Source: Bacillus subtilis subsp. subtilis str. 168 (GTDB lineage: Bacteria; Bacillota; Bacilli; Bacillales; Bacillaceae). Taken from it: 32,000 bases of DNA. How positions within the stretch are numbered: the first letter of the stretch is position 1; each line of letters begins with the position of its first letter. Position numbers and translations under genes: made by a program. The notes under the pieces are model-generated. The model ran no database searches, had not been told where the DNA came from, and saw nothing but the letters and a program-made list of their open reading frames with translations. Below, piece by piece: positions 5,140 to 21,371 of this stretch. Where the stretch lies: NCBI RefSeq assembly GCF_000009045.1, contig NC_000964.3, positions 870,001 through 902,000 on the forward strand. The letters run 5' to 3'.

Positions 5140-5233
5140 GATGATAGGAATATAAGGAAAGTATGGCGTATATCATTTCAAGAGTCATTCGATGTAAAAA
5201 GTTGAAACATTGTAATAAATGAAAGAGGTGAAA

Positions 5234-5287
5234 ATGATGGCCAACCCCATTTTAAAATGCATAACGTATGAGCACTACAACAATTAA
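5234..5287 (+). CDS. Candidate 17-aa small ORF (MMANPILKCITYEHYNN)
   Basis: A strong SD AAGAGGTG (5223-5230) lies 3-6 nt upstream of the tandem ATG ATG, and a candidate promoter lies about 100 nt upstream. There is no homology evidence. Confidence 0.25.
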   Translation: MMANPILKCITYEHYNN

Positions 5288-5427
5288 ATAATAGTGCCGA
5301 GACGATAACAACTATTACAGTAATACCTACAATGGTTATATCCTTGCGACAATCATGCTTCATAATATAATGATTTTAGATTGACACTTGGCTAAAAAGT
5401 ATTGCAGAGAAGGAAATGGATAATTAA

Positions 5428-5694
5428 ATGGATAAAGTATATAAAAGAAGTTGGTTTCAAACATTTTTGGCATTTTTAGTATCTCAGCTTTATTTTAATT
5501 TTGTAGAATTAACGGGATGGGGTCCTAAGTATAGAGAAATGAATGGATTCCCAGCAAACATAGTTGAACTAGATTTCTTTCAAACATATCTTTCATTCTA
5601 TGATAATCCATGGTTTAATATTATTACTGTTTTCTTGGGAGTTTTCACTATTATACAAATAATTACAGGGATAACAAAGGATATTCGAAATTAA
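5428..5694 (+). CDS. Small hypothetical membrane protein (88 aa, two hydrophobic segments)
   Basis: An intact ORF in an AT-rich context, with hydrophobic segments FQTFLAFLVSQLYFNF and FNIITVFLGVFTIIQIITGI. The SD-like GAAGGAAA is about 12 nt upstream, and a hairpin lies downstream at 5765-5790. Confidence 0.45.
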   Translation: MDKVYKRSWFQTFLAFLVSQLYFNFVELTGWGPKYREMNGFPANIVELDFFQTYLSFYDNPWFNIITVFLGVFTIIQIITGITKDIRN

Positions 5695-5764
5695 AGCAAT
5701 AACTTCTGATGCCTTATTTAATGATGAAAGAAAATGTACACTTTCTTAATTATCTTATGAGTGA

Positions 5765-5796
5765 AGACTGCGACACTTAGTCAGCAGTCTATTTTA
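5765..5796 (+). terminator. Possible terminator after the 88-aa ORF
   Basis: Stem agactgc (5765-5771) / gcagtct (5784-5790), followed by atttta. Confidence 0.4.
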
Positions 5797-6425
5797 TGGT
5801 TCTGGATCAGGATTACCGAATTATAACCCTATACAAATATATAGTAGGTTGCCACTTGCTGCGTTGGTTATTTTCTAAATCATGAGCAAATCCCAAATGA
5901 TTCAGATTGAAGTTCTTGAATTCTTTTAAATAAGGGTTTATTTTCTCTTCTCATCCTCTTTACTCCATGTGATTCACAAGTGGTAGCAGCTTAAGTAGGT
6001 TTTTTCATTCTCTTGAGTACTCAGTTATACCACCCCCAACTCAATTTGCTTTATCTCTATTAGTTTTTCCGCAAATATGATATAGAGATACGGATATGGT
6101 GTAGTGTTAAATATCTTATCTTCAATAACAGGGCAATTATTTTGCGTTGGTAATATGGAGAACTCATATGATATTCTATTTAGGTTGGAATCCTTTTTAT
6201 CCAAAAAGTTCAAAAGCAAGGCCACTAAGAAAGACGAAGGTCAGCGCCAGTTAACCAGAATATAAAAAATAGGGTAGATAATCATCCCACGTGAAATCTT
6301 CAAAATTTACTATAGATTGATAAGAAATGCTTTCGCATGCGATAAGTGTAAAAGAAGCATGGTCAGTTTTTAATTTGGGATAAAGGTTCAGCCGTATCCC
6401 ATAATGAAAGGATTTGATTTTTGTT

Positions 6426-7403
6426 ATGACAGAAAATTTCTGGCGTGAATTACCACGGCCGTTTTTTGTACTGGCACCAATGGAAGATGTGACAGATGTT
6501 GTTTTCCGGCATGTAGTAAGTGAAGCAGGCAGACCGGATGTGTTTTTTACAGAGTTCACAAACTCAGAGAGCTATTGCCACCCGGATGGGAAGGATAGCG
6601 TGCGCGGCCGTTTGACTTTTACAGAGGATGAACAGCCAATTGTGGCCCATATATGGGGAGATAAGCCTGAAAACTTCCGTAAAATGAGTATTGGCATGGC
6701 AGAGTTAGGATTTAAAGGACTAGATATCAATATGGGCTGCCCTGTGCCTAATGTGGCGGGGAATGGAAAGGGAAGCGGCCTTATTTGCCGTCCTGCAGTT
6801 GCGGCAGAATTAATACAAGCTGCAAAAGCAGGGGGATTGCCTGTAAGCGTGAAGACAAGACTTGGATACACGGATGTGGATGAATGGCGCGAGTGGCTGA
6901 CACACATTTTGAAACAGGATATTGCGAATCTTTCTATTCATCTGCGTACAAGGGCAGAAATGAGCAAAGTAGATGCGCATTGGGAGCTCATCCCAGAGAT
7001 TAAGAAACTTCGTGACGAGGTGGCACCAGATACATTGCTAACAATAAACGGGGATATTCCTGACCGTCAAACTGGCTTGAAACTTGCTGAACAATACGGC
7101 GTCGATGGAATTATGATAGGGCGCGGTATTTTTACAAATCCTTTCGCTTTTGAAAAGGAGCCGAAAGAGCATAGCAGCAAGGAATTGCTTGATCTCTTAA
7201 GGCTGCATCTGGATCTCCATGATGAATATTCAAAAGAAGAAGCCCGTCCATACAAGCCTCTTCCTCGCTTTTTCAAGATTTATCTCCGCGGATTCCGAGG
7301 GGCAAGTGAATTAAGAAATCAATGCATGAACACAAAGTCAACAGATGAAGTGCGTGCATTGCTCGACGACTTTGAGAGAAAGTATCTTGATGGGATAGAG
7401 TAA
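6426..7403 (+). CDS. yfjN: tRNA-dihydrouridine synthase (Dus family, FMN TIM barrel)
   Basis: N-terminal [13 protein letters not shown] and the catalytic-Cys motif DINMGCP. The ATG at 6426 (MTENFW...) is preferred because the ORF-track TTG at 6414 abuts the SD GAAAGGA. This is the second Dus paralogue of B. subtilis (called dusC or dusB2 in different sources). Confidence 0.85.
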
Positions 7404-13757: not shown

Positions 13758-15575
13758 ATGAATTCGGTCCCAAACGATTTGCAAACCTGGAAACGTTTTG
13801 TGAAAGACGGTGTGCTTGACGAAGCCCGATTAAGAAAACGGATTGCAGAGTCATGGCATCGCTGCAAAAAAGCTGAGGTCAATCCTTATTTAGAAAAAGG
13901 CCCGAAGGTTTTACAGCAAACGGAGCTGGATCAGCAGTCAAAAAAACATTCATTCTTCTTGACGACCGCAAAGCCTTACCTCGAAAAACTGCTGCCTGCC
14001 ATAAAAGAAATGGAAATGATGGCGCTGTTAATTGATTCAGACGGTGTTGTTCTGGCATTGGACGGCCATCCGCGCGCGCTCTATGAAGCCAAACGCATCA
14101 ATTTCGTCGAAGGGGCATGCTGGACAGAAACGGCTGTCGGAACAAATGCGATTGGCACGGCGCTCCACATCAGCGAGCCGGTTGCAATACAAGGATCAGA
14201 GCATTACTCTATCGCTTCCCATCTTTGGAACTGTTCAGCTGCTCCGATTCACCATGAGGATGGCAGCCTTGCGGGTGTAATTGACATATCATGCCCGGCG
14301 GCAGGCGCGCATCCTCATATGCTTGGTATTGCCACGGCGATTGCCTATGCCGCTGAACGGGAACTCGCAGCTAAAAGCCGTGAGAAAGAGCTGGAGCTGA
14401 TCAGCCGTTTTGGGGAGAGAGCTGCATCCAGTGTGCCGATGGTGCTCTGTAATACCAAGCAGCACATCATCAGTGCGAGCATGCCGATTCGAACCTCAAT
14501 GCCGGATTGGCAGGGCCGGCACCTGTACGAGTTGAAGGAACGGGGCTATTCAATCGAAAATGCTGTCACCATAGGAGATGGCGGCACTTGTTTTTATCTT
14601 TCGGAACAAAAGAAAAAGAAGGCGTTTCGATTCAATGGAGTGATCGGGCAAAGCGGCCGATCGCAAGCGATGCTGATGCACCTTGAACGAGCAGCTGCGA
14701 CGGATGCATCGGTCTGTTTGTCGGGTGAAACGGGTACGGGGAAGGAGGTCGCGGCTCGCGCGCTTCATGAGAACAGTGAGAGACGGCACGGTCCGTTTGT
14801 TGCTGTCAATTGCGGAGCGATTCCGTCTGATTTGATTGAAAGCGAACTGTTCGGATATGCAGAGGGCGCTTTTACGGGAGCGAAACGAAATGGCTATAAA
14901 GGCGCCTTTCAAAAAGCGAATCAAGGCACATTATTTTTAGATGAAATCGGAGAAATTTCCCACTCGATGCAGGTTGCACTTTTACGGGTGCTTCAGGAAC
15001 GCAAGATAACGCCAATCGGCGGGACGAAAGAAATTCCGGTTGATATCAGAGTTATTGCCGCCACACATTGTGATTTACGCGAGCTTGCCGAAAACGGAAA
15101 AATCAGAGAGGACTTGTTTTACCGTCTTCATGTCTATCCAATTGAACTCCCTCCATTACGCGATCGCACCGAGGATATCCCGGATCTCTTTGAGTACTAC
15201 AAACAGAAGAATCATTGGCCAGGCGATCTTCCTTCTGATTTTTGTAATGTGCTGAAGCAATGGAAGTGGCCGGGGAATATCCGCGAGCTGTTTAATGTGT
15301 TTGAACGTCTTTCTATCAGATTTCCGGACGGCCGGCTGAGAGATGAATCGCTTCCCGCTTTACTGGAAGCCGCTGGATTGCCGGCCAGCTCTGCAGAAAA
15401 AAAGCCGGCTGCTGCCGGCGTGCTTACTTTTCGTGAGCAAATCCAAAAGGATATGATGATCAAAGCGCTTGAATCTGCAAAAGGAAACGTCTCTCAAGCC
15501 GCAAAAATCAGCGGGATCCCCCGAAGCACTTTCTACAAACGCCTGAAAAAATTCAACTTGTCCGCTGAATCATAA
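13758..15575 (+). CDS. acoR: Sigma-54-dependent transcriptional activator of the aco operon (bEBP)
   Basis: N-terminal sensory (GAF-like) region. AAA+ sigma-54 interaction domain with Walker A GETGTGKE and the GAFTGA loop (EGAFTGA). C-terminal Fis-type HTH ([19 protein letters not shown]). The ORF-track ATG at 13722 lies only 2 nt after the predicted -10 hexamer (13714-13719), upstream of the expected TSS, so ATG 13758 is preferred. Confidence 0.88.
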
Positions 15576-15628
15576 AGCATACTTCCTTCAGGAAATGGAA
15601 ACGTTATGTATTGAAGGAGGGTGTTACG

Positions 15629-15808
15629 ATGAATATTCAAAGGGCGAAAGAAATTGTAGAATCTCCCGACATGAAGAAAGTAACATATAACGGCGTTCCT
15701 ATTTACATTCAGCACGTAAATGAAGAAACTGGAACAGCAAGAATTTATCCGCTTGACGAACCGCAAGAGGAGCATGAAGTGCAGCTGAACAGCTTAAAAG
15801 AGGATTAA
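15629..15808 (+). CDS. sspH: Small acid-soluble spore protein, SspH family (59 aa)
   Basis: MNIQRAKEIVESPDMKKVTYNGVPIYIQHV... is recognised as the SspH family. SD GAAGGAGGG is 8 nt upstream of ATG 15629; the ORF-track start at 15611 precedes that SD. Confidence 0.85.
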   Translation: MNIQRAKEIVESPDMKKVTYNGVPIYIQHVNEETGTARIYPLDEPQEEHEVQLNSLKED

Positions 15809-15811
15809 ACA

Positions 15812-15843
15812 AAAATGGCCCGCTTCATAAGCAGGCCATTTTG
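15812..15843. terminator. Bidirectional terminator between convergent sspH and yfjF
   Basis: Arms aaaatggcccgc / gcaggccatttt (one mismatch). A-run on the left and T-run on the right. Confidence 0.7.
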
Positions 15844-16173
15844 TTATCCGCGCGGCGCAAATAAAATAACACAGACACCGATGAGACAAATGAATGCGCC
15901 GATCCAGTCATACAGATCAGGTGTTTTCCGGTCAACAAGCCATCCCCACAGGACCGCAAGCACGATGAATACTCCGCCATAAGCGGCGTATACACGGCCG
16001 AAAGATGGGAAGGACTGAAACGTCGGAAGAATGCCGTATACAATGAGGATCAGCGCCCCGGCGATTCCGTAGCCAGCTGGCTTTGCCTCTCTCAGCCATA
16101 GCCAAACCAGATATCCGCCGCCAATTTCAGCAAGCCCTGCCGCGAGAAATAAAAGAATGGTAATCAGCATCAT
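15844..16173 (-). CDS. yfjF: Small 4-TM membrane protein, UPF0060 (YnfA-like, SMR/DMT-related) family
   Basis: 109 aa and almost entirely hydrophobic, with the conserved [10 protein letters not shown] motif. SD GAGGAG, with ATG at 16173; the ORF-track GTG at 16179 abuts the SD. It is the last gene of the minus-strand yfj operon. Confidence 0.8.
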
Positions 16174-16222
16174 GAGCACTCCTCAATTTGCATTTATCTT
16201 TCATTATAGAGGAGGAGAGCTT

Positions 16223-16765
16223 TTAAAGCTTCGGATGATTCTCAAATTCCTTCAAATACGCTTTTCGCTGAACCTCTGTAAATTGGCTGATCCAATTGTT
16301 TTGAGCCTCTTCATTCAAATGGGGAAGGATATAGCGTTCAACCGCTTCGAAAAACAGCGGATTCGTGATGATGTTCCAGGTCGGGATTCGAACGATTTTG
16401 CCGTCTGTTTTCTCGATGATAATATCCTCAAAAAAGATCCCTTTCAAACTGTATTGATGGCGTCCCATATAAAGCCGCTTCACCTCGGAAAACAGCACGC
16501 TGCGCTTTCTCAAGAAGATTTCGCCACTAGGTCCGGTCTTTATGGTGAAAATGACATTTCCACGGCTTGTGAACGCAGGAAAAGCCATAAAGAATGTGAT
16601 CAATCCATAAATCATCGCCAGTAATCCGCCGCCCAAATAAAGCAGGGCATATTTAGATTCAAACGTGAGGGCTTCAGACACCAGCCAGACTCCCACAATA
16701 AAGGCGCCCCCTGTAGCGAGGAACAGCCAAGCCCTTAGAAACATCATGCTTTTTACTTCAATCAT
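16223..16765 (-). CDS. yfjE: 2-TM membrane protein, paralogue of YfjD; candidate immunity protein
   Basis: Two N-terminal TM helices (FLRAWLFLATGGAFIVGVWLV; ALLYLGGGLLAMIYGLITFFMAF) followed by a soluble ~110-aa domain. The C-terminal 56 aa are nearly identical to YfjD. Confidence 0.8.
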   Translation of the reverse strand: MIEVKSMMFLRAWLFLATGGAFIVGVWLVSEALTFESKYALLYLGGGLLAMIYGLITFFMAFPAFTSRGNVIFTIKTGPSGEIFLRKRSVLFSEVKRLYMGRHQYSLKGIFFEDIIIEKTDGKIVRIPTWNIITNPLFFEAVERYILPHLNEEAQNNWISQFTEVQRKAYLKEFENHPKL

Positions 16766-16774
16766 GTGCTGCCC

Positions 16775-17332
16775 CTAAAGCTTCGGATGATTCTCAAATT
16801 CCTTCAAATACGCACTGCGTTGGATGTCTGTAAACTGTCCGATCCAATTGCTTTTCGCCTCTTCATTCAGATGTGGAAGGATATAGCGTTCAACCGCTTC
16901 GAAAAACAACGGATTCGGAATGATGTTCCAAGTGGGAATGCGAATGGTCTTCTGATCCACGGTTTGGATCAATATATCTTCTTGGAAGATTCCTTTTAGA
17001 CTAAATTTATGGCGGCTCATCTCAATTTTCTTGATATCAGTAAACGTAACAGACACTTTGTCAGTGAACACTTCTCCATTTTTTCCTGTCTTGATGCGGA
17101 AAATGGTATTTCCCCGCGGGGTGAAAGCCGGAAAGAAGATGATAAATAAATATAAACAAAACAAGGTGAACAGAAAGCCAGCAGGAATGGCTAATAGGTA
17201 ATATTTCGTTTGAAACGTAATACCCATATAAAAGAGCCACAAACATGCTAATCCCATACCGGCAGATCCGACAAAAGCCCATATTCTCAGGAACATTTTG
17301 CTTTTGACTTCAATGATTTCTTGGTTTTTCAA
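16775..17332 (-). CDS. yfjD: 2-TM membrane protein, paralogue of YfjE; candidate immunity protein
   Basis: TTG start 7 nt after the SD AAAGGAG. Same architecture as YfjE. The stop is 9 nt upstream of the yfjE start. Confidence 0.8.
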   Translation of the reverse strand: MKNQEIIEVKSKMFLRIWAFVGSAGMGLACLWLFYMGITFQTKYYLLAIPAGFLFTLFCLYLFIIFFPAFTPRGNTIFRIKTGKNGEVFTDKVSVTFTDIKKIEMSRHKFSLKGIFQEDILIQTVDQKTIRIPTWNIIPNPLFFEAVERYILPHLNEEAKSNWIGQFTDIQRSAYLKEFENHPKL

Positions 17333-17363
17333 TGCTTTTCTCCTTTTGTTAATTCAATTCTTA

Positions 17364-18131
17364 TCATTTTGAAATGATTTGATTTACAACATCCTTATGA
17401 GCAGGGAGGATAGAAAATTCATTCTGGGTGATGCCTGTGACAAGCCAAGTATGGTGGGCCCCCGGCAGGACGAATGCCATGTCAGCCACTTCAGGAGTGT
17501 TATCTTTTCCATATGCCAGACGCATAAGTGTATCCATTTTCCCTTTCCGCAAAGCCAGATCATTTGCAAATCGGGTAACGTCCTCTTGGTGGTCATGTTT
17601 TTCAAGGAACTCTTTTAGATATGAAGGGTTGTCTGAAGCGCCCTCCAAGAGTTTTTCAAATTCATTTGATGTCAATGTTACAATCGATTCTCTTTTATCC
17701 TCTGTATCTATTATATGTAAAAACTCATCTGTCTTAGCAAGTAACCCTTCACTTGATTCCATTTTTGTAATGCGATGGACTTGTTCATCAAAAAGGAGTT
17801 CGTGAGAGTAGGTGCCGAATTTTGATACATGGCATGACACATTCTGTTCGGCACCTTGCCCGTTAAATTTAGAAAGCTTCACTGTATAGTCAGCGTCGTT
17901 TAATACATGGATAAACGGACAGTACTCGTCCTTTAACCGATATTGATGGTTCCGATATTCCGCTGCATCCTTGGCTAAGAGTGAGCGGCACGCGGCTTCA
18001 AATAAGGCGCCGAGCTGTTCATCTTCTATTTCCGGAAAATAGGCCTGCTTCAAGGCCATTCCCTGTTCAAAAAACCCTTCGCTGTAAAAGCAAAACAAGA
18101 GTTCTTCTATGCTAATTGTAAACTGCTTCAT
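17364..18131 (-). CDS. yfjC: Cytosolic acidic protein of unknown function (255 aa); candidate chaperone/adaptor or immunity factor for YfjB
   Basis: No TM segment or signal peptide, and rich in Glu and Asp. The SD AGGAGA overlaps the yfjB stop, with an 11-nt intergenic gap. Confidence 0.75.
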   Translation of the reverse strand: MKQFTISIEELLFCFYSEGFFEQGMALKQAYFPEIEDEQLGALFEAACRSLLAKDAAEYRNHQYRLKDEYCPFIHVLNDADYTVKLSKFNGQGAEQNVSCHVSKFGTYSHELLFDEQVHRITKMESSEGLLAKTDEFLHIIDTEDKRESIVTLTSNEFEKLLEGASDNPSYLKEFLEKHDHQEDVTRFANDLALRKGKMDTLMRLAYGKDNTPEVADMAFVLPGAHHTWLVTGITQNEFSILPAHKDVVNQIISK

Positions 18132-18142
18132 TGTTTATTCTC

Positions 18143-19366
18143 CTATCCAAATGAAAATTTCCCTTTAAGGAAATGGGTTGCGCCGTGTATAAGCGAATCC
18201 GCTGTTTTCTTTGCTTTTTCCATTCCTTTTTTCGCGCTGTCTATCCCTTTATGTATCGATTTATTCGCCGCATCTATGCCGTCATTCACTGATTTGACGA
18301 CTTTGCCGGCTGATTCCAGCCCTTTTTTGGCTGTATCAACAACAGCATGGATCGGTTCTTTCAGCTTTAAGGCTGCTTTTTCAGCAAAACCGGCTGTATA
18401 TTTGGCGATTTGTTCTCCGACGACTCCGCCAATGTATGAACCTGCTGCCCCAAGAAGGACAGTACCCACAGGTCCTGCAAAGCTTCCGATTGCACCGCCG
18501 ATGACAGCACCAGCTGTGGCACCGCCGGCAACAAAAATCGTATTATTCACAGCATTCCCGACGGCCTTGGCGTTTTCACGCTTGAGAACTTCCGGTTTAT
18601 CCTGGTATTTTGCATAATTTTCAGCAATTTTCACGCCTGCTCCGAATGTTTCGGTCGCTCCGGTAATCAGTGTGGCGGTAATGGCATTTCCTTTCGCGAA
18701 TCTCAAGCCCGTTTTTCCCACATCCTTCAAAGTGGAGCGTACGCCGGCTTCATTAAGAAATCCTTTTGTGTAGCTTCTGACGCTGTTTGAAAAATCCACC
18801 GTGTCCTGAGGAAAGTATTTTGTAAACTTTTTATGTACCAAATCTGAAAATGGACGGTTTGTCTTTTTCAACAAATATTTAGGATTCAAAAGCACTCTTG
18901 CCGCTTTTTGATAACGTGAGCTGTCAACGGCCCTGGAAATATCCAAGAGCAGTTTTGAGTGCTGGGCTGTATGCAAGCCGCTTGGTTGTTTCACAAATTT
19001 CGTAAGCCCTAATCCGTAATATTTTCCCTGCGTCAGCATAAGAGCGGTTAAGCTTGTCATCGTACCGTATTTGTCGTAGGCATTGTAGAGCTTTCGCAAA
19101 ATATCATCTTGTTCCACAAATTTATCGCCTGTTTTTCTGATGAAAATCTCATTGTCACTCAGCTTAGTGACGAGCGCCTTTCCTGAGCTCCACGCATCGC
19201 CCACTCCAGAAAAACAGCTGCTGTAGCGGGGATCGCATTGCAAAATCATCTGCCCCAGCTCCACATGCAGGTCCTTATATTTGTTTTCCATATCAGTTAA
19301 TTCAGTGACTACATCATTTGCAAGCTGTTCGAGCTTATCCGGATCAACTGCAATGTTTCCTGACAC
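18143..19366 (-). CDS. yfjB: Putative T7SS-secreted toxin: WXG/LXG-like helical N-terminus, glycine-zipper and Lys-rich repeat C-terminus
   Basis: The N-terminal ~100 aa are helical with the turn motif VGDAWSSG. Residues ~271-320 form a glycine zipper (GAVIGGAIGSFAGPVG...GAAGSYIGGVVG). The C-terminal 80 aa are amphipathic and Lys-rich with a repeated (V/I)DxA(K/N)K motif. The start is ambiguous: the ORF-track GTG at 19375 overlaps the SD GGGAGG, while GTG at 19366 has 8-nt spacing and is preferred. Confidence 0.8.
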   Translation of the reverse strand: MSGNIAVDPDKLEQLANDVVTELTDMENKYKDLHVELGQMILQCDPRYSSCFSGVGDAWSSGKALVTKLSDNEIFIRKTGDKFVEQDDILRKLYNAYDKYGTMTSLTALMLTQGKYYGLGLTKFVKQPSGLHTAQHSKLLLDISRAVDSSRYQKAARVLLNPKYLLKKTNRPFSDLVHKKFTKYFPQDTVDFSNSVRSYTKGFLNEAGVRSTLKDVGKTGLRFAKGNAITATLITGATETFGAGVKIAENYAKYQDKPEVLKRENAKAVGNAVNNTIFVAGGATAGAVIGGAIGSFAGPVGTVLLGAAGSYIGGVVGEQIAKYTAGFAEKAALKLKEPIHAVVDTAKKGLESAGKVVKSVNDGIDAANKSIHKGIDSAKKGMEKAKKTADSLIHGATHFLKGKFSFG

Positions 19367-19371
19367 ACCGT

Positions 19372-19686
19372 TCACCTCCCGAGTTTATGTCTTTCCTCTC
19401 TTGCTTTACGCTCCAGTTCTTCCATTCTGGCAATTTCAGCTTTTCGTTCTTCTATTTTGACAGCGGCAGCCTTCAGCTCTTGGCTTGTTTCAAGCAGCTC
19501 CTGTTCGAATTGATCGTAGGCGGCTTTCGTTTCCTCGAAATCCTGGTCAAACGAATCTCTTGCTTTGCCCTGCCAAGCATCTCCCAATGCAGATAACCGG
19601 GATTCAAGCAGCATTTTGGAGCTTCTGACCTCTTCTGCGGCCGCACTATACTTGTTTGCCAGCTCAATGACTTTATATGAGTCCAA
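19372..19686 (-). CDS. yfjA: WXG100-family (ESAT-6-like) small helical protein, 104 aa
   Basis: W-x-G motif (DAWQG) at residues 38-40 of a ~100-aa all-helical protein with a coiled-coil charged C-terminus. TTG start at 19686 lies 6 nt after the SD AGGGGA. The ORF-track extension to 19791 encodes an implausible leader and overlaps the promoter region. Confidence 0.8.
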   Translation of the reverse strand: MDSYKVIELANKYSAAAEEVRSSKMLLESRLSALGDAWQGKARDSFDQDFEETKAAYDQFEQELLETSQELKAAAVKIEERKAEIARMEELERKAREERHKLGR

Positions 19687-19741
19687 CTTTTGTCCCCTGC
19701 CTTTTCTAAATTCACGCACAATTGGATGTTTTATATAAATG

Positions 19742-19770
19742 ATTATAAATAATTCGGCATGTATCCGAAT
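19742..19770 (-). promoter_or_regulatory. Candidate yfj operon promoter -10 (TATAAT) with an adjacent perfect inverted repeat
   Basis: Minus-strand TATAAT (plus strand 19742-19747). The inverted repeat ATTCGG-N7-CCGAAT (19752-19770) occupies the -35 region, where no good TTGACA is present. Confidence 0.4.
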
Positions 19771-19940
19771 CGTACAAAAGAACCTTTTCATAAGAATTGG
19801 AAGGGCGTATATTCACTTAAAATTCACAGTTGGTGAGACTTTAAGATTACAAAAAAGGTAAAAAAACCAAATCTCTCAGACATAAGGCAAATGAGAAATT
19901 TCCCGCTCTATGGGAAAAAACACTAAAGTTGATCAAATGA

Positions 19941-21371
<1,431 letters not shown>

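Follow-up and report, generated by a model that had tools for sequence, protein, structure and literature searches.

We propose that the tandem genes yfjD and yfjE of Bacillus subtilis 168 belong to a single DUF5381 immunity family that comes in two specificities, here called type D and type E, and that yfjE is an immunity orphan directed at the E-type form of the YfjB toxin, a reading to which we assign a probability of roughly 0.6. The window, i.e., the whole 32,000-nt stretch of DNA that was analyzed, was studied within a comparison sample of 17 loci, several of which are close relatives of one another. The locus itself is that of the YFJ system; its operon order has already been reported, as have the glycine-zipper toxin, its WXG100 partner, and YfjC with its EspG-like fold (Kobayashi 2023, bioRxiv 10.1101/2023.08.02.551746). 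The two toxin/immunity types, their co-switching, the match of yfjE to the other type, and the mosaic history of the 5′ and 3′ parts of the immunity genes do not appear in that preprint and are new here.

All genes of the operon lie on the reverse strand. The first, yfjA (19372-19686), encodes the WXG100 partner protein (Pfam WXG100, E = 4e-12) and likely starts at a TTG near 19686; the mechanical ORF runs to 19791, and the relatives' gene is called at 104-106 aa. [quoted passage not shown] Pfam glycine-zipper matches span aa 284-325 of YfjB, the match to Gly-zipper_Omp (E = 0.0017) lying under the Pfam cut-off. The next ORF, yfjC (17364-18131), encodes a chaperone and co-toxin factor whose EspG-like fold is taken from the preprint. 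Downstream lie yfjD (16775-17332; 185 aa, D type), the cognate immunity (antitoxin) gene for its own YfjB/YfjC, and yfjE (16223-16765; 180 aa, E type), the putative orphan. A junction of 9 nt (16766-16774) separates the yfjD stop codon from the yfjE ATG and holds the yfjE ribosome-binding site (AGGGG). The last gene, yfjF (15844-16179), encodes a UPF0060 membrane protein (Pfam, E = 1.1e-50), and the operon ends at a terminator-like intrinsic hairpin (15812-15842) with a 14-bp stem and a T-rich tail (TGTTTAATCC). A promoter scan of 15500-20100 returned 7 sites versus 7.8 expected and so gave no sign of an internal yfjE promoter.

Both tandem genes encode members of Pfam PF17353 (DUF5381; "YfjD family protein" at NCBI), with scores of 253.3 bits for YfjD (E = 1.3e-75) and 207.5 bits for YfjE (E = 1.6e-61) against a gathering score of 26 bits, each covering nearly the whole 170-position model; an NCBIfam scan of YfjB, YfjC, YfjD, and YfjE gave zero matches. 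The gene order WXG100, ~400-aa glycine-zipper protein, YfjC-like protein, and DUF5381 protein was found in the window and in 16 related loci. In the remote homologues L022 and L024, DUF5381 likewise sits in a WXG100/YfjB-like/YfjC-like module, the exception to this neighborhood being the solitary copies of sonorensis-like genomes. Together with the published self-intoxication of the yfjD mutant, which depends on yfjC and the T7SS (bioRxiv 10.1101/2023.08.02.551746), the shared family bears out the original prediction that the pair are immunity-type genes.

The AF2 model of YfjD (pLDDT 79) begins with a strand, continues through transmembrane (TM) helices at residues 14-38 and 45-70 into a set of beta strands, and closes with three helices at the C-terminus; it favors a two-TM hairpin in which residues 14-38 form one continuous helix. 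In the preprint, YfjD is instead taken to be a lipoprotein whose signal peptide can be cleaved (bioRxiv 10.1101/2023.08.02.551746). The cysteine of the G-L-A-C motif is kept only in D-type proteins and is missing from the E type and from the sonorensis copy. Given this distribution and the continuous modeled helix, we set the lipoprotein reading aside, although processing could still occur, and keep the predicted two-helix TM hairpin for the DUF5381 protein. The soluble domain is modeled (pLDDT 83) as six beta strands followed by a helix. A PH-like fold, which had been suggested for this domain, is unconfirmed: Foldseek searches of the full-length and soluble-domain AF2 models against the PDB returned nothing at E ≤ 0.001, with PH-like domains (GRK2, SSRP1, DENND3, USP37, Rtt106, and TFIIH p62; best E 0.07-0.3, TM 0.26-0.43) recurring among the weak matches. 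The soluble domain had no significant Foldseek match among viral structures, and no bPH family was listed by Pfam at E ≤ 10 on the soluble domains. The only PH-type Pfam match, SOS1_NGEF_PH, was sub-threshold (E 0.025-0.075 in one of 13 members; 13.7 bits for YfjE versus a cut-off of 27.7), and a PDB sequence search with the family profile gave nothing below E = 0.7.

The 3′ ends of the two genes are, as originally noticed, highly alike at the DNA level. A 38-nt block occurs exactly twice (16224-16261 and 16776-16813), as does a 34-nt block (16323-16356 and 16875-16908), and both were absent from all 100 shuffles. A repeat search returned a single direct-repeat family of 176 nt with 86% identity and a spacing of 552, its copy 1 being the 3′ module of yfjE (16224-16399, reverse strand) and its copy 2 that of yfjD (16776-16951, reverse strand), which encodes the last beta strand and the three C-terminal helices. 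YfjD and YfjE align without gaps at 61% protein identity overall, and pairwise alignment of the genes gave a nucleotide identity of 55.5% for the first 375 aligned nt as opposed to 86.7% for the final 165 nt (Fisher P = 3e-13). Under a two-rate change-point model, the break fell at nt ~373-388 with a log-likelihood gain of 28.6 units, and the longest identical run, with the stop codon not scored, was 36 nt, compared to a maximum of 33 in 20,000 permutations. Synonymous divergence between the genes is saturated in the 5′ part and amounts to dS ~0.6 in the 3′ part. A nucleotide-level element behind the 38-nt block, such as a ribosome-binding site, a terminator, or an RNA, was rejected, as the similarity does not extend past the stop codon, the sequences that follow are different, and in orthologues the tract behaves like any other coding sequence.

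The boundary lies elsewhere than between membrane and soluble halves. The TM part is indeed diverged, as had been claimed, but the soluble beta-strand region (aa 67-125) is equally so (dN 0.455 vs 0.496 for the TM region), and the homogenization ascribed to the soluble domain holds only for the three C-terminal helices, the near-identity of YfjD and YfjE being restricted to the last ~47 codons. The C-terminal motif (RIPTWNI..., Y-I-L-P-H, E-A-K, and N-W) is also the most conserved part of the DUF5381 family, remote homologues included, with 25 of 47 columns invariant in the C-terminal helices versus 18 of 64 in the TM part.

Comparison across the 17 loci resolved the first 372 nt of the immunity gene into two deep types: D and E sequences are 54-61% identical in every comparison, while identities within a type are 75-99%. 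This split is absent from the 3′ 165 nt in the same comparison. Copy number varies among the relatives. The E type is the sole 185-aa gene adjoining yfjC in 10 loci (inaquosorum, stercoris, mexicanus, tequilensis, mojavensis, rugosus, two spizizenii, L013, and L014), the D type is the sole copy in N13C7 and atrophaeus, and a tandem of D then E occurs in the window, in halotolerans, and in L019. The second copy is E-type in every case and stands behind a D-type toxin, the reverse order never being seen in the 17 loci. In its 5′ part, yfjE shares 83-93% identity with the immunity gene that stands alone in the E-only species and only 55% with yfjD; relative to the full-length E-type gene, five codons are missing from its start. 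The 5′ divergence of D and E is saturated and older than the species group. The pair had been taken for a simple tandem duplication; yfjD and yfjE are instead two ancient allelic types set side by side, not the outcome of a simple in situ duplication followed by divergence. The D-E junction, TAGG(G/A)GCAGCACAT, is common to the window and B. halotolerans, suggesting that the tandem arose once. A simple deletion, with D and E recombining at their first codons, was rejected as a complete account of the E-only loci because the tail of yfjC and the intergenic region upstream of the immunity gene are also type-specific.

The toxin is dimorphic in step with the immunity gene. In 17 of 17 loci, the zipper type of YfjB matches the type of the immunity gene adjoining yfjC. 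Only eight of the 410 YfjB columns are diagnostic of type (299, 300, 308, 310, 311, 314, 318, and 328), and all fall within residues 299-328, the dimorphic stretch of the glycine-zipper membrane segment encoded at 18392-18481 on the reverse strand. The E-type zipper is a perfect G304xxxG308xxxG312xxxG316xxxG320, whereas the D type has L308. No column is diagnostic in YfjA (0/139) or YfjF (0/111), and the four diagnostic columns of YfjC all lie in its last 11 residues (aa 245-255), encoded by the type-specific final ~11 codons (17367-17399, reverse strand) that lie at the left edge of the immunity divergence island. In the immunity protein, diagnostic columns number 28 of 64 in the TM hairpin, 16 of 68 in the beta domain, and one of 47 in the C-terminal helices (aa 139-185). 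The diversification of a toxin-facing TM part, which the original prediction had anticipated, is thus borne out by the concentration of diagnostic residues in the hairpin and their co-switching with the eight zipper residues, and this co-variation points to YfjB residues 299-328 as the putative specificity determinant of the toxin.

At the nucleotide level, between-type identity drops to 61-65% over ~18380-18530, with flanks of 92-100%. Outside the immunity island, the halotolerans and mojavensis operons are mostly 87-100% identical, with lower values for the zipper (68-72%) and for the very 3′ end of yfjC together with the intergenic region that follows it (37-56%). In a tree of acoR, the D loci are scattered among the E loci, with the sister pairs window/stercoris (E), N13C7/inaquosorum (E), and halotolerans/mojavensis (E), a placement that implies at least four independent joint switches of toxin and immunity gene. 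The zipper and immunity islands are ~1 kb apart, so that linkage and hitch-hiking contribute to the co-variation; the DNA between them is nevertheless conserved, which argues for selection despite linkage. The sequence type of yfjD matches its own toxin. That of yfjE does not match the toxin of its own window, the only yfjB within the 32 kb having a D-type zipper.

The 3′ third of the immunity gene tracks the species clade and not the type, and therefore recombines. Synonymous codon identity between D and E falls from 74% in the 3′ part to 49% in the 5′ part (P = 0.015), and between the yfjD of the window and the E gene of rugosus it is 77% versus 45% (P = 0.001); this 3′ excess was absent from ortholog control pairs. 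The D genes of the window and N13C7 differ with a dS of 0.039 in the 5′ part and 0.343, nine-fold higher, in the 3′ part. In the relative L019, D/E gene conversion is clear: its two copies are 95% identical in the 3′ part, against 88-92% between genomes, and have a unique FEDHP residue in common. These observations bear on the idea that no recombination took place and that the 3′ likeness stems from extreme protein-level and codon-level constraint on the C-terminal helices. The exceptional conservation of the C-terminal motif and its excess of invariant columns are what such constraint would produce, but it would not make synonymous sites more alike in D-versus-E pairs and not in orthologous pairs, nor would it group the 3′ part by clade, raise the 3′ dS between two D genes, or leave the conversion tract of L019. 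We consider this explanation very improbable.

Gene conversion of the conserved domain, which had been raised as a possibility, is upheld as 3′ recombination and in L019, but the window gives no sign of recent intragenomic conversion. The 87% identity of its D and E 3′ parts is no higher than the between-genome D-to-E identity (84-92%) and is lower than that of the orthologs (94% with the D gene of N13C7 and 92% with the E gene of rugosus). The same figures weigh on a history of local tandem duplication, 5′ divergence, and ongoing intragenomic conversion of the 3′ ends in which both copies guard against their own YfjB. The direct tandem arrangement, 552 nt apart with the 176-nt repeat, is what such a history would leave, and L019 documents conversion of exactly this tract with unique substitutions in common. 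Against it stand, besides the unremarkable 3′ identity in the window, the occurrence of the E type as the sole copy in most sister species, where it is paired with a different zipper, a 5′ divergence that predates the species group, and the yfjE mutant phenotypes described below. We regard it as quite unlikely.

Published genetics separate the two genes. YfjD serves as antitoxin to the glycine-zipper toxin YfjB/YfjC, which is secreted by the type VII system and in which YfjB is toxic together with YfjC, and a yfjD mutant shows >10% dead cells, a phenotype suppressed by yfjC or yukE-operon mutations (Kobayashi 2023, bioRxiv 10.1101/2023.08.02.551746). A yfjE mutant, in contrast, has no phenotype, the yfjD yfjE double mutant behaves as the yfjD mutant, and the dispensable paralogue is missing from many strains (bioRxiv 10.1101/2023.08.02.551746). 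The expectation that both copies confer immunity to their own toxin therefore fails for yfjE, which is dispensable and matches the other toxin type. No effect of yfjE was seen in the sole functional test of the gene, which looked at self-immunity and at competition with a mutant lacking the yfjA operon (bioRxiv 10.1101/2023.08.02.551746), a result compatible with the orphan-immunity model and equally with a functionless gene.

A functionless yfjE would be the relic of a D-over-E cassette replacement, drifting to loss, and its 3′ similarity to yfjD would reflect the shared ancestry of a slowly evolving segment. In line with such decay, in addition to the lack of a deletion phenotype and the absence from many strains, the N-terminus of yfjE is shortened, the second copy is frameshifted in B. 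halotolerans L020 and L021, and the distant locus L022 holds a decayed second copy. The second-copy ORF is, however, intact in three lineages (the window, halotolerans ATCC 25096, and L019), a plausible ribosome-binding site is kept, and the dN/dS of yfjE against cognate E genes is 0.14-0.21, indicative of purifying selection and near the 0.09-0.12 of the cognate genes themselves. Decay would also not account for orphans that are always E-type behind a D toxin and never the reverse. On balance, we judge a relic unlikely.

The orphan-immunity reading fits these data better: yfjE is a homologue of the cognate gene, has no matching toxin beside it in the 32-kb window, and evolves with a dN/dS below 1. 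Since yfjE is E-type and such copies always stand behind a D-type toxin, while the cognate slot is always matched to the toxin, the most fitting interpretation of yfjE is that of an orphan immunity gene directed at the E-type YfjB of sister species, probably serving as a spare shield against that toxin variant. The window strain would accordingly combine a D-type toxin, the cognate yfjD, and an additional E-type yfjE that may protect it from the E-type YFJ toxin delivered by sister species such as B. spizizenii, B. inaquosorum, and B. stercoris. Under this proposal, the DUF5381 protein, with its N-in TM hairpin, cytoplasmic beta domain, and three C-terminal helices, would act against T7SS-exported YfjB, toxic together with YfjC, the two toxin types differing at the eight residues around the second helix of the zipper (aa 299-328). 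A likely mechanism is that the type-specific hairpin binds the zipper helices within the membrane and blocks their oligomerization, a contact suggested by co-variation alone, just as the protective function of yfjE is deduced from comparison of the loci. The last ~47 codons would constitute a type-independent module that is under strong purifying selection and recombines freely between copies and lineages, which would explain the near-identical 3′ ends. Exchange may be stopped at about codon 125-139 by selection for specificity or by sheer sequence divergence. The gene is accordingly a mosaic, its 5′ part being very old and its 3′ part young.

The arrangement resembles polymorphic toxin loci, in which a variable toxin tip co-varies with the immunity gene and orphans accumulate downstream, as in the cdiA-CT/cdiI genes of CDI systems, Rhs, and the acquired interbacterial defence genes of the T6SS; there, conserved bounding sequence permits homologous recombination. 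In YFJ, by contrast, variation in the toxin is confined to ~30 residues within a membrane zipper instead of extending over an entire C-terminal domain, recombination has its right-hand boundary within the immunity gene, and only two types were found. Among T7SS toxins, TelE/TipE of S. gallolyticus and TspA/TsaI of S. aureus likewise pair a membrane toxin with specific immunity and extra paralogous copies nearby: a second DUF5085 copy gives no protection against TelE, and several tsaI homologues lie at the tspA locus. TipE, a soluble DUF5085 protein, and TsaI, a polytopic membrane protein, are both unrelated to DUF5381, and in the literature on these pairs we found no description of a partial-gene mosaic with a shared 3′ module. 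A precedent is offered by ExiCD, the membrane-embedded immunity to EsxX of S. aureus, a glycine-zipper, membrane-depolarizing T7SS toxin; the ExiCD genes are found beside the toxin and also as orphans, in genomes or at positions where the matching toxin is lacking (Alcock et al. 2025, Cell Rep, PMC12744356). Both ExiC and ExiD are polytopic and come from unrelated families, whereas the DUF5381 protein is predicted to have only two TM helices and a cytoplasmic domain; EsxX is an LXG toxin with added soluble ExiAB immunity (PMC12744356), and YfjB has no LXG Pfam match and has WXG100 and EspG-like partners.

Taken further, and with rather less than even confidence, the comparisons may describe YFJ as a two-allele intramembrane system, in which the eight residues on the second zipper helix and the hairpin would form a matched helix-helix code maintained as a trans-species polymorphism throughout the B. 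subtilis group, with D-type producers such as B. subtilis 168/3610 holding the E-type shield as well. The system would in that case act as a weapon between species, with asymmetric immunity, rather than solely as a within-species signal, and the 3′ module would serve as the recombination handle for cassette swap, gain, and loss. The preprint found little sequence variation in the operon and considered YFJ mainly a signal rather than a weapon (bioRxiv 10.1101/2023.08.02.551746); the dimorphism across the B. subtilis group contrasts with this absence of polymorphism, on which the biofilm-signal view was based. The analysis gives yfjE, an unexplained paralogue, a concrete proposed role, and provides a clear natural example of a gene with parts of very different age in which selection may block recombination at the specificity boundary. 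How membrane immunity proteins recognize glycine-zipper pore formers is poorly understood for T7SS toxins, and with specificity narrowed to eight toxin residues and a two-helix hairpin, YFJ would offer a small, directly mutable system.

On a B. subtilis-type chromosome, six genes run from yfjA to yfjF between aco and glvA, every one on the minus strand: yfjA (WXG100; ~19372-19686), yfjB (18143-19375), yfjC (17364-18131), yfjD (16775-17332), yfjE (16223-16765), and yfjF (UPF0060; 15844-16179), followed downstream by a strong terminator-like hairpin (15842-15812). YfjB has sub-threshold glycine-zipper Pfam matches at residues 284-325, and YfjD and YfjE both match DUF5381 (E = 1e-75 and 2e-61, respectively). 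The mechanically called yfjA ORF (19372-19791) encodes 139 aa, while relatives are annotated with 104-106 aa; the true start is probably a TTG near 19686, and the yfjA stop codon overlaps the GTG start of yfjB.

[quoted passage not shown] A yfjD mutant contains more than 10% dead cells and is outcompeted, and mutations in yfjC or the yukE operon suppress this phenotype, so that YfjD is the antitoxin; its paralogue yfjE has no phenotype and is missing from many strains (Kobayashi 2023, bioRxiv 10.1101/2023.08.02.551746). The original prediction that the tandem genes confer immunity was therefore correct, and already published, for yfjD, but the yfjE mutant gives it no support. Having found little variation in the operon, the same study concluded that YFJ serves mainly in intercellular signalling, a view restated in a 2023 review.

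The near-identical 3' ends noted for yfjD and yfjE are real. Blocks of 38 and 34 nt each occur exactly twice at the positions noted (0 in 100 shuffles), and a repeat search returned a single 176-nt direct repeat (16224-16399 and 16776-16951; 86% identity, spacing 552 nt). YfjD and YfjE align without gaps at 61% identity. At the DNA level, the first 375 nt are 55.5% identical, against 86.7% for the last 165 nt (P = 3e-13), with a maximum-likelihood break at nt ~373-388; synonymous sites have reached saturation in the 5' part, and their divergence is ~0.6 in the 3' part. The conserved segment is smaller than the whole soluble domain originally proposed: near-identity is confined to the last ~47 codons, and the soluble beta region (aa 67-125) has diverged as much as the membrane part.

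DUF5381 is a small family: its 21 clusters at 90% identity all come from the B. subtilis group and B. sonorensis-like genomes, and a set of 1.8 billion proteins contained 48 representatives at the 50% level. We compared loci from 12 species representatives and further strains. Over its first 372 nt, the immunity gene splits into two deep types, D and E, which are 54-61% identical in every pairing. The D type comprises yfjD of the window and genes of Bacillus sp. N13C7, B. halotolerans, B. atrophaeus, and L019, a relative with a D-E tandem. The E type comprises yfjE of the window, the second copies of B. halotolerans and L019, and the sole immunity gene, a 185-aa product encoded immediately after yfjC, in ten other loci (B. 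inaquosorum, B. stercoris, B. mexicanus, B. tequilensis, B. mojavensis, B. rugosus, two B. spizizenii genomes, and the related loci L013 and L014).

The toxin, too, comes in two forms. When whole operons were compared in sliding windows, a sharp island stood out in yfjB (~18380-18530; codons ~282-332) where D and E loci are 61-72% identical, against 92-100% in the flanks. At the protein level this island is the glycine zipper, which reads ...GSFAGPVGTVLLGAAGSYIGGVVGEQ... in the D type and ...GSVLGPVGTVVGGTIGSAVGGFVGEK... in the E type; the perfect G304xxxG308xxxG312xxxG316xxxG320 series is found in E-type YfjB only, the D type having L308. In 17/17 loci scored, the zipper and the immunity gene adjoining yfjC are of the same type. 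An unbiased screen for type-diagnostic columns across the operon proteins gave 0/139 in YfjA, 0/111 in YfjF, 8/410 in YfjB (every one in 299-328), and four in YfjC, all within its last 11 residues; in the immunity protein there were 28/64 in the transmembrane hairpin, 16/68 in the beta domain, and 1/47 in the C-terminal helices. On the acoR tree, with B. atrophaeus as outgroup, D loci are dispersed among E loci (sister pairs: window with B. stercoris, N13C7 with B. inaquosorum, B. halotolerans with B. mojavensis, the second of each pair being E-type), so toxin and immunity types have switched jointly at least four times. The toxin and immunity islands are separated by ~1 kb of conserved DNA, the pattern that marks a pair of specificity determinants under joint selection. 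This is good indirect evidence that the type-specific part of the immunity protein, chiefly its transmembrane hairpin, recognizes the toxin zipper helix.

Further variation was seen in both toxin genes. The last ~11 yfjC codons (17367-17399; …NQIISK versus …KGILFC) and the yfjC-yfjD intergenic region (17333-17363) are likewise type-specific, which may be functional or reflect hitch-hiking with the adjacent immunity gene. A 7-residue indel in YfjB (KGIDSAK, aa ~376-382; ~18230-18250), part of a KGxxxAKK-like repeat, varies among species regardless of type. In B. halotolerans ATCC 25096 (L002), yfjC (5200-5963) gave two overlapping tblastn segments, suggesting an assembly error or a frameshift; another B. 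halotolerans locus, L020, has an intact yfjC of 261 aa.

With the AF2 model built from the family alignment (pLDDT 79, pTM 0.66; soluble domain separately, pLDDT 83), the immunity protein is predicted to comprise a short N-terminal strand, two long helices (14-38 and 45-70), beta strands, and three C-terminal helices. The long helices are predicted to form a hairpin with both ends cytoplasmic, as judged from charge distribution. The earlier speculation of a PH-like soluble domain is a lead only: PH-like domains recurred among weak Foldseek matches, but the models had no significant match in the PDB and Pfam gave no bPH match.

Why, then, are the 3' ends alike? The last 165 nt show no D/E split, and their similarity tracks species clade: those of yfjD are 84-92% identical to subtilis-clade sole E-type genes, 87% to yfjE, and only 78% to the B. 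atrophaeus D gene. In D-E pairs, synonymous codon identity is higher in the 3' than in the 5' part (34/46 versus 28/57, P = 0.015; 37/48 versus 25/56, P = 0.001). The excess is absent from pairs of orthologues, which rules out codon constraint as the cause. Gene conversion, originally raised as a possibility, holds for L019, whose D and E 3' modules are 95% identical with unique substitutions in common, by sequence a true intragenomic conversion. The window copies, however, resemble each other in their 3' parts no more closely than a D and an E gene taken from separate genomes do, and carry no sign of recent conversion. Between yfjD and its N13C7 counterpart, dS rises from 0.039 in the 5' part to 0.343 in the 3' part, and a crossover therefore fell inside the 3' module. 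The D-E junction sequence common to the window and B. halotolerans suggests a single origin of the tandem. Separately, 16134-16252, which runs from the 3' end of yfjE across the intergenic region into the 5' end of yfjF, matches B. rugosus at 98-100% identity and the closer relative B. stercoris at only 90-94%, which hints at a patch of recent interspecies recombination.

Two-copy loci always carry a D-type toxin with the D gene first and the E gene second; the reverse, an E-type toxin with a D-type second copy, was not found among those compared. Because its 5' part is 83-93% identical to cognate E genes and it is under purifying selection (dN/dS 0.14-0.21; cognate genes 0.06-0.12), we read yfjE as a candidate orphan immunity gene directed against the E-type toxin that sister species make, which would explain why cells lacking it show no defect in self-immunity. 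This reading fits the fate of other copies. B. halotolerans ATCC 25096 retains an intact E-type second copy; in L020 (4281-4836) and L021 of the same species, that copy is frameshifted and broken into ORFs of 97 and 111 aa. Remote homologues are the last genes of modules in L022 (3011-6919) and L024 (3631-6564) that begin with WXG100, ~400-aa glycine-zipper, and YfjC-like genes, and a second copy in L022 is decayed by an in-frame stop and a frameshift. In the B. sonorensis-like loci L015-L018, a solitary DUF5381 gene (6001-6546) with a D-like hairpin sits between yitT-like and ltaS-like genes with no yfjABC nearby, and could represent orphan immunity in a non-producer; 3 kb downstream is an unrelated LXG toxin. 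ExiCD of Staphylococcus aureus similarly provides orphan immunity against a glycine-zipper toxin, EsxX.

The immunity role of yfjD was known. New findings are that toxin and immunity types match, that yfjE reads as an orphan, that the residues likely to set specificity map to a narrow region, and that the immunity gene has a mosaic history shaped by recombination. The YFJ locus belongs to a well-known kind, in which polymorphic toxin/immunity loci carry orphan immunity genes, and the D/E dimorphism revises the published picture of the YFJ system as non-polymorphic.
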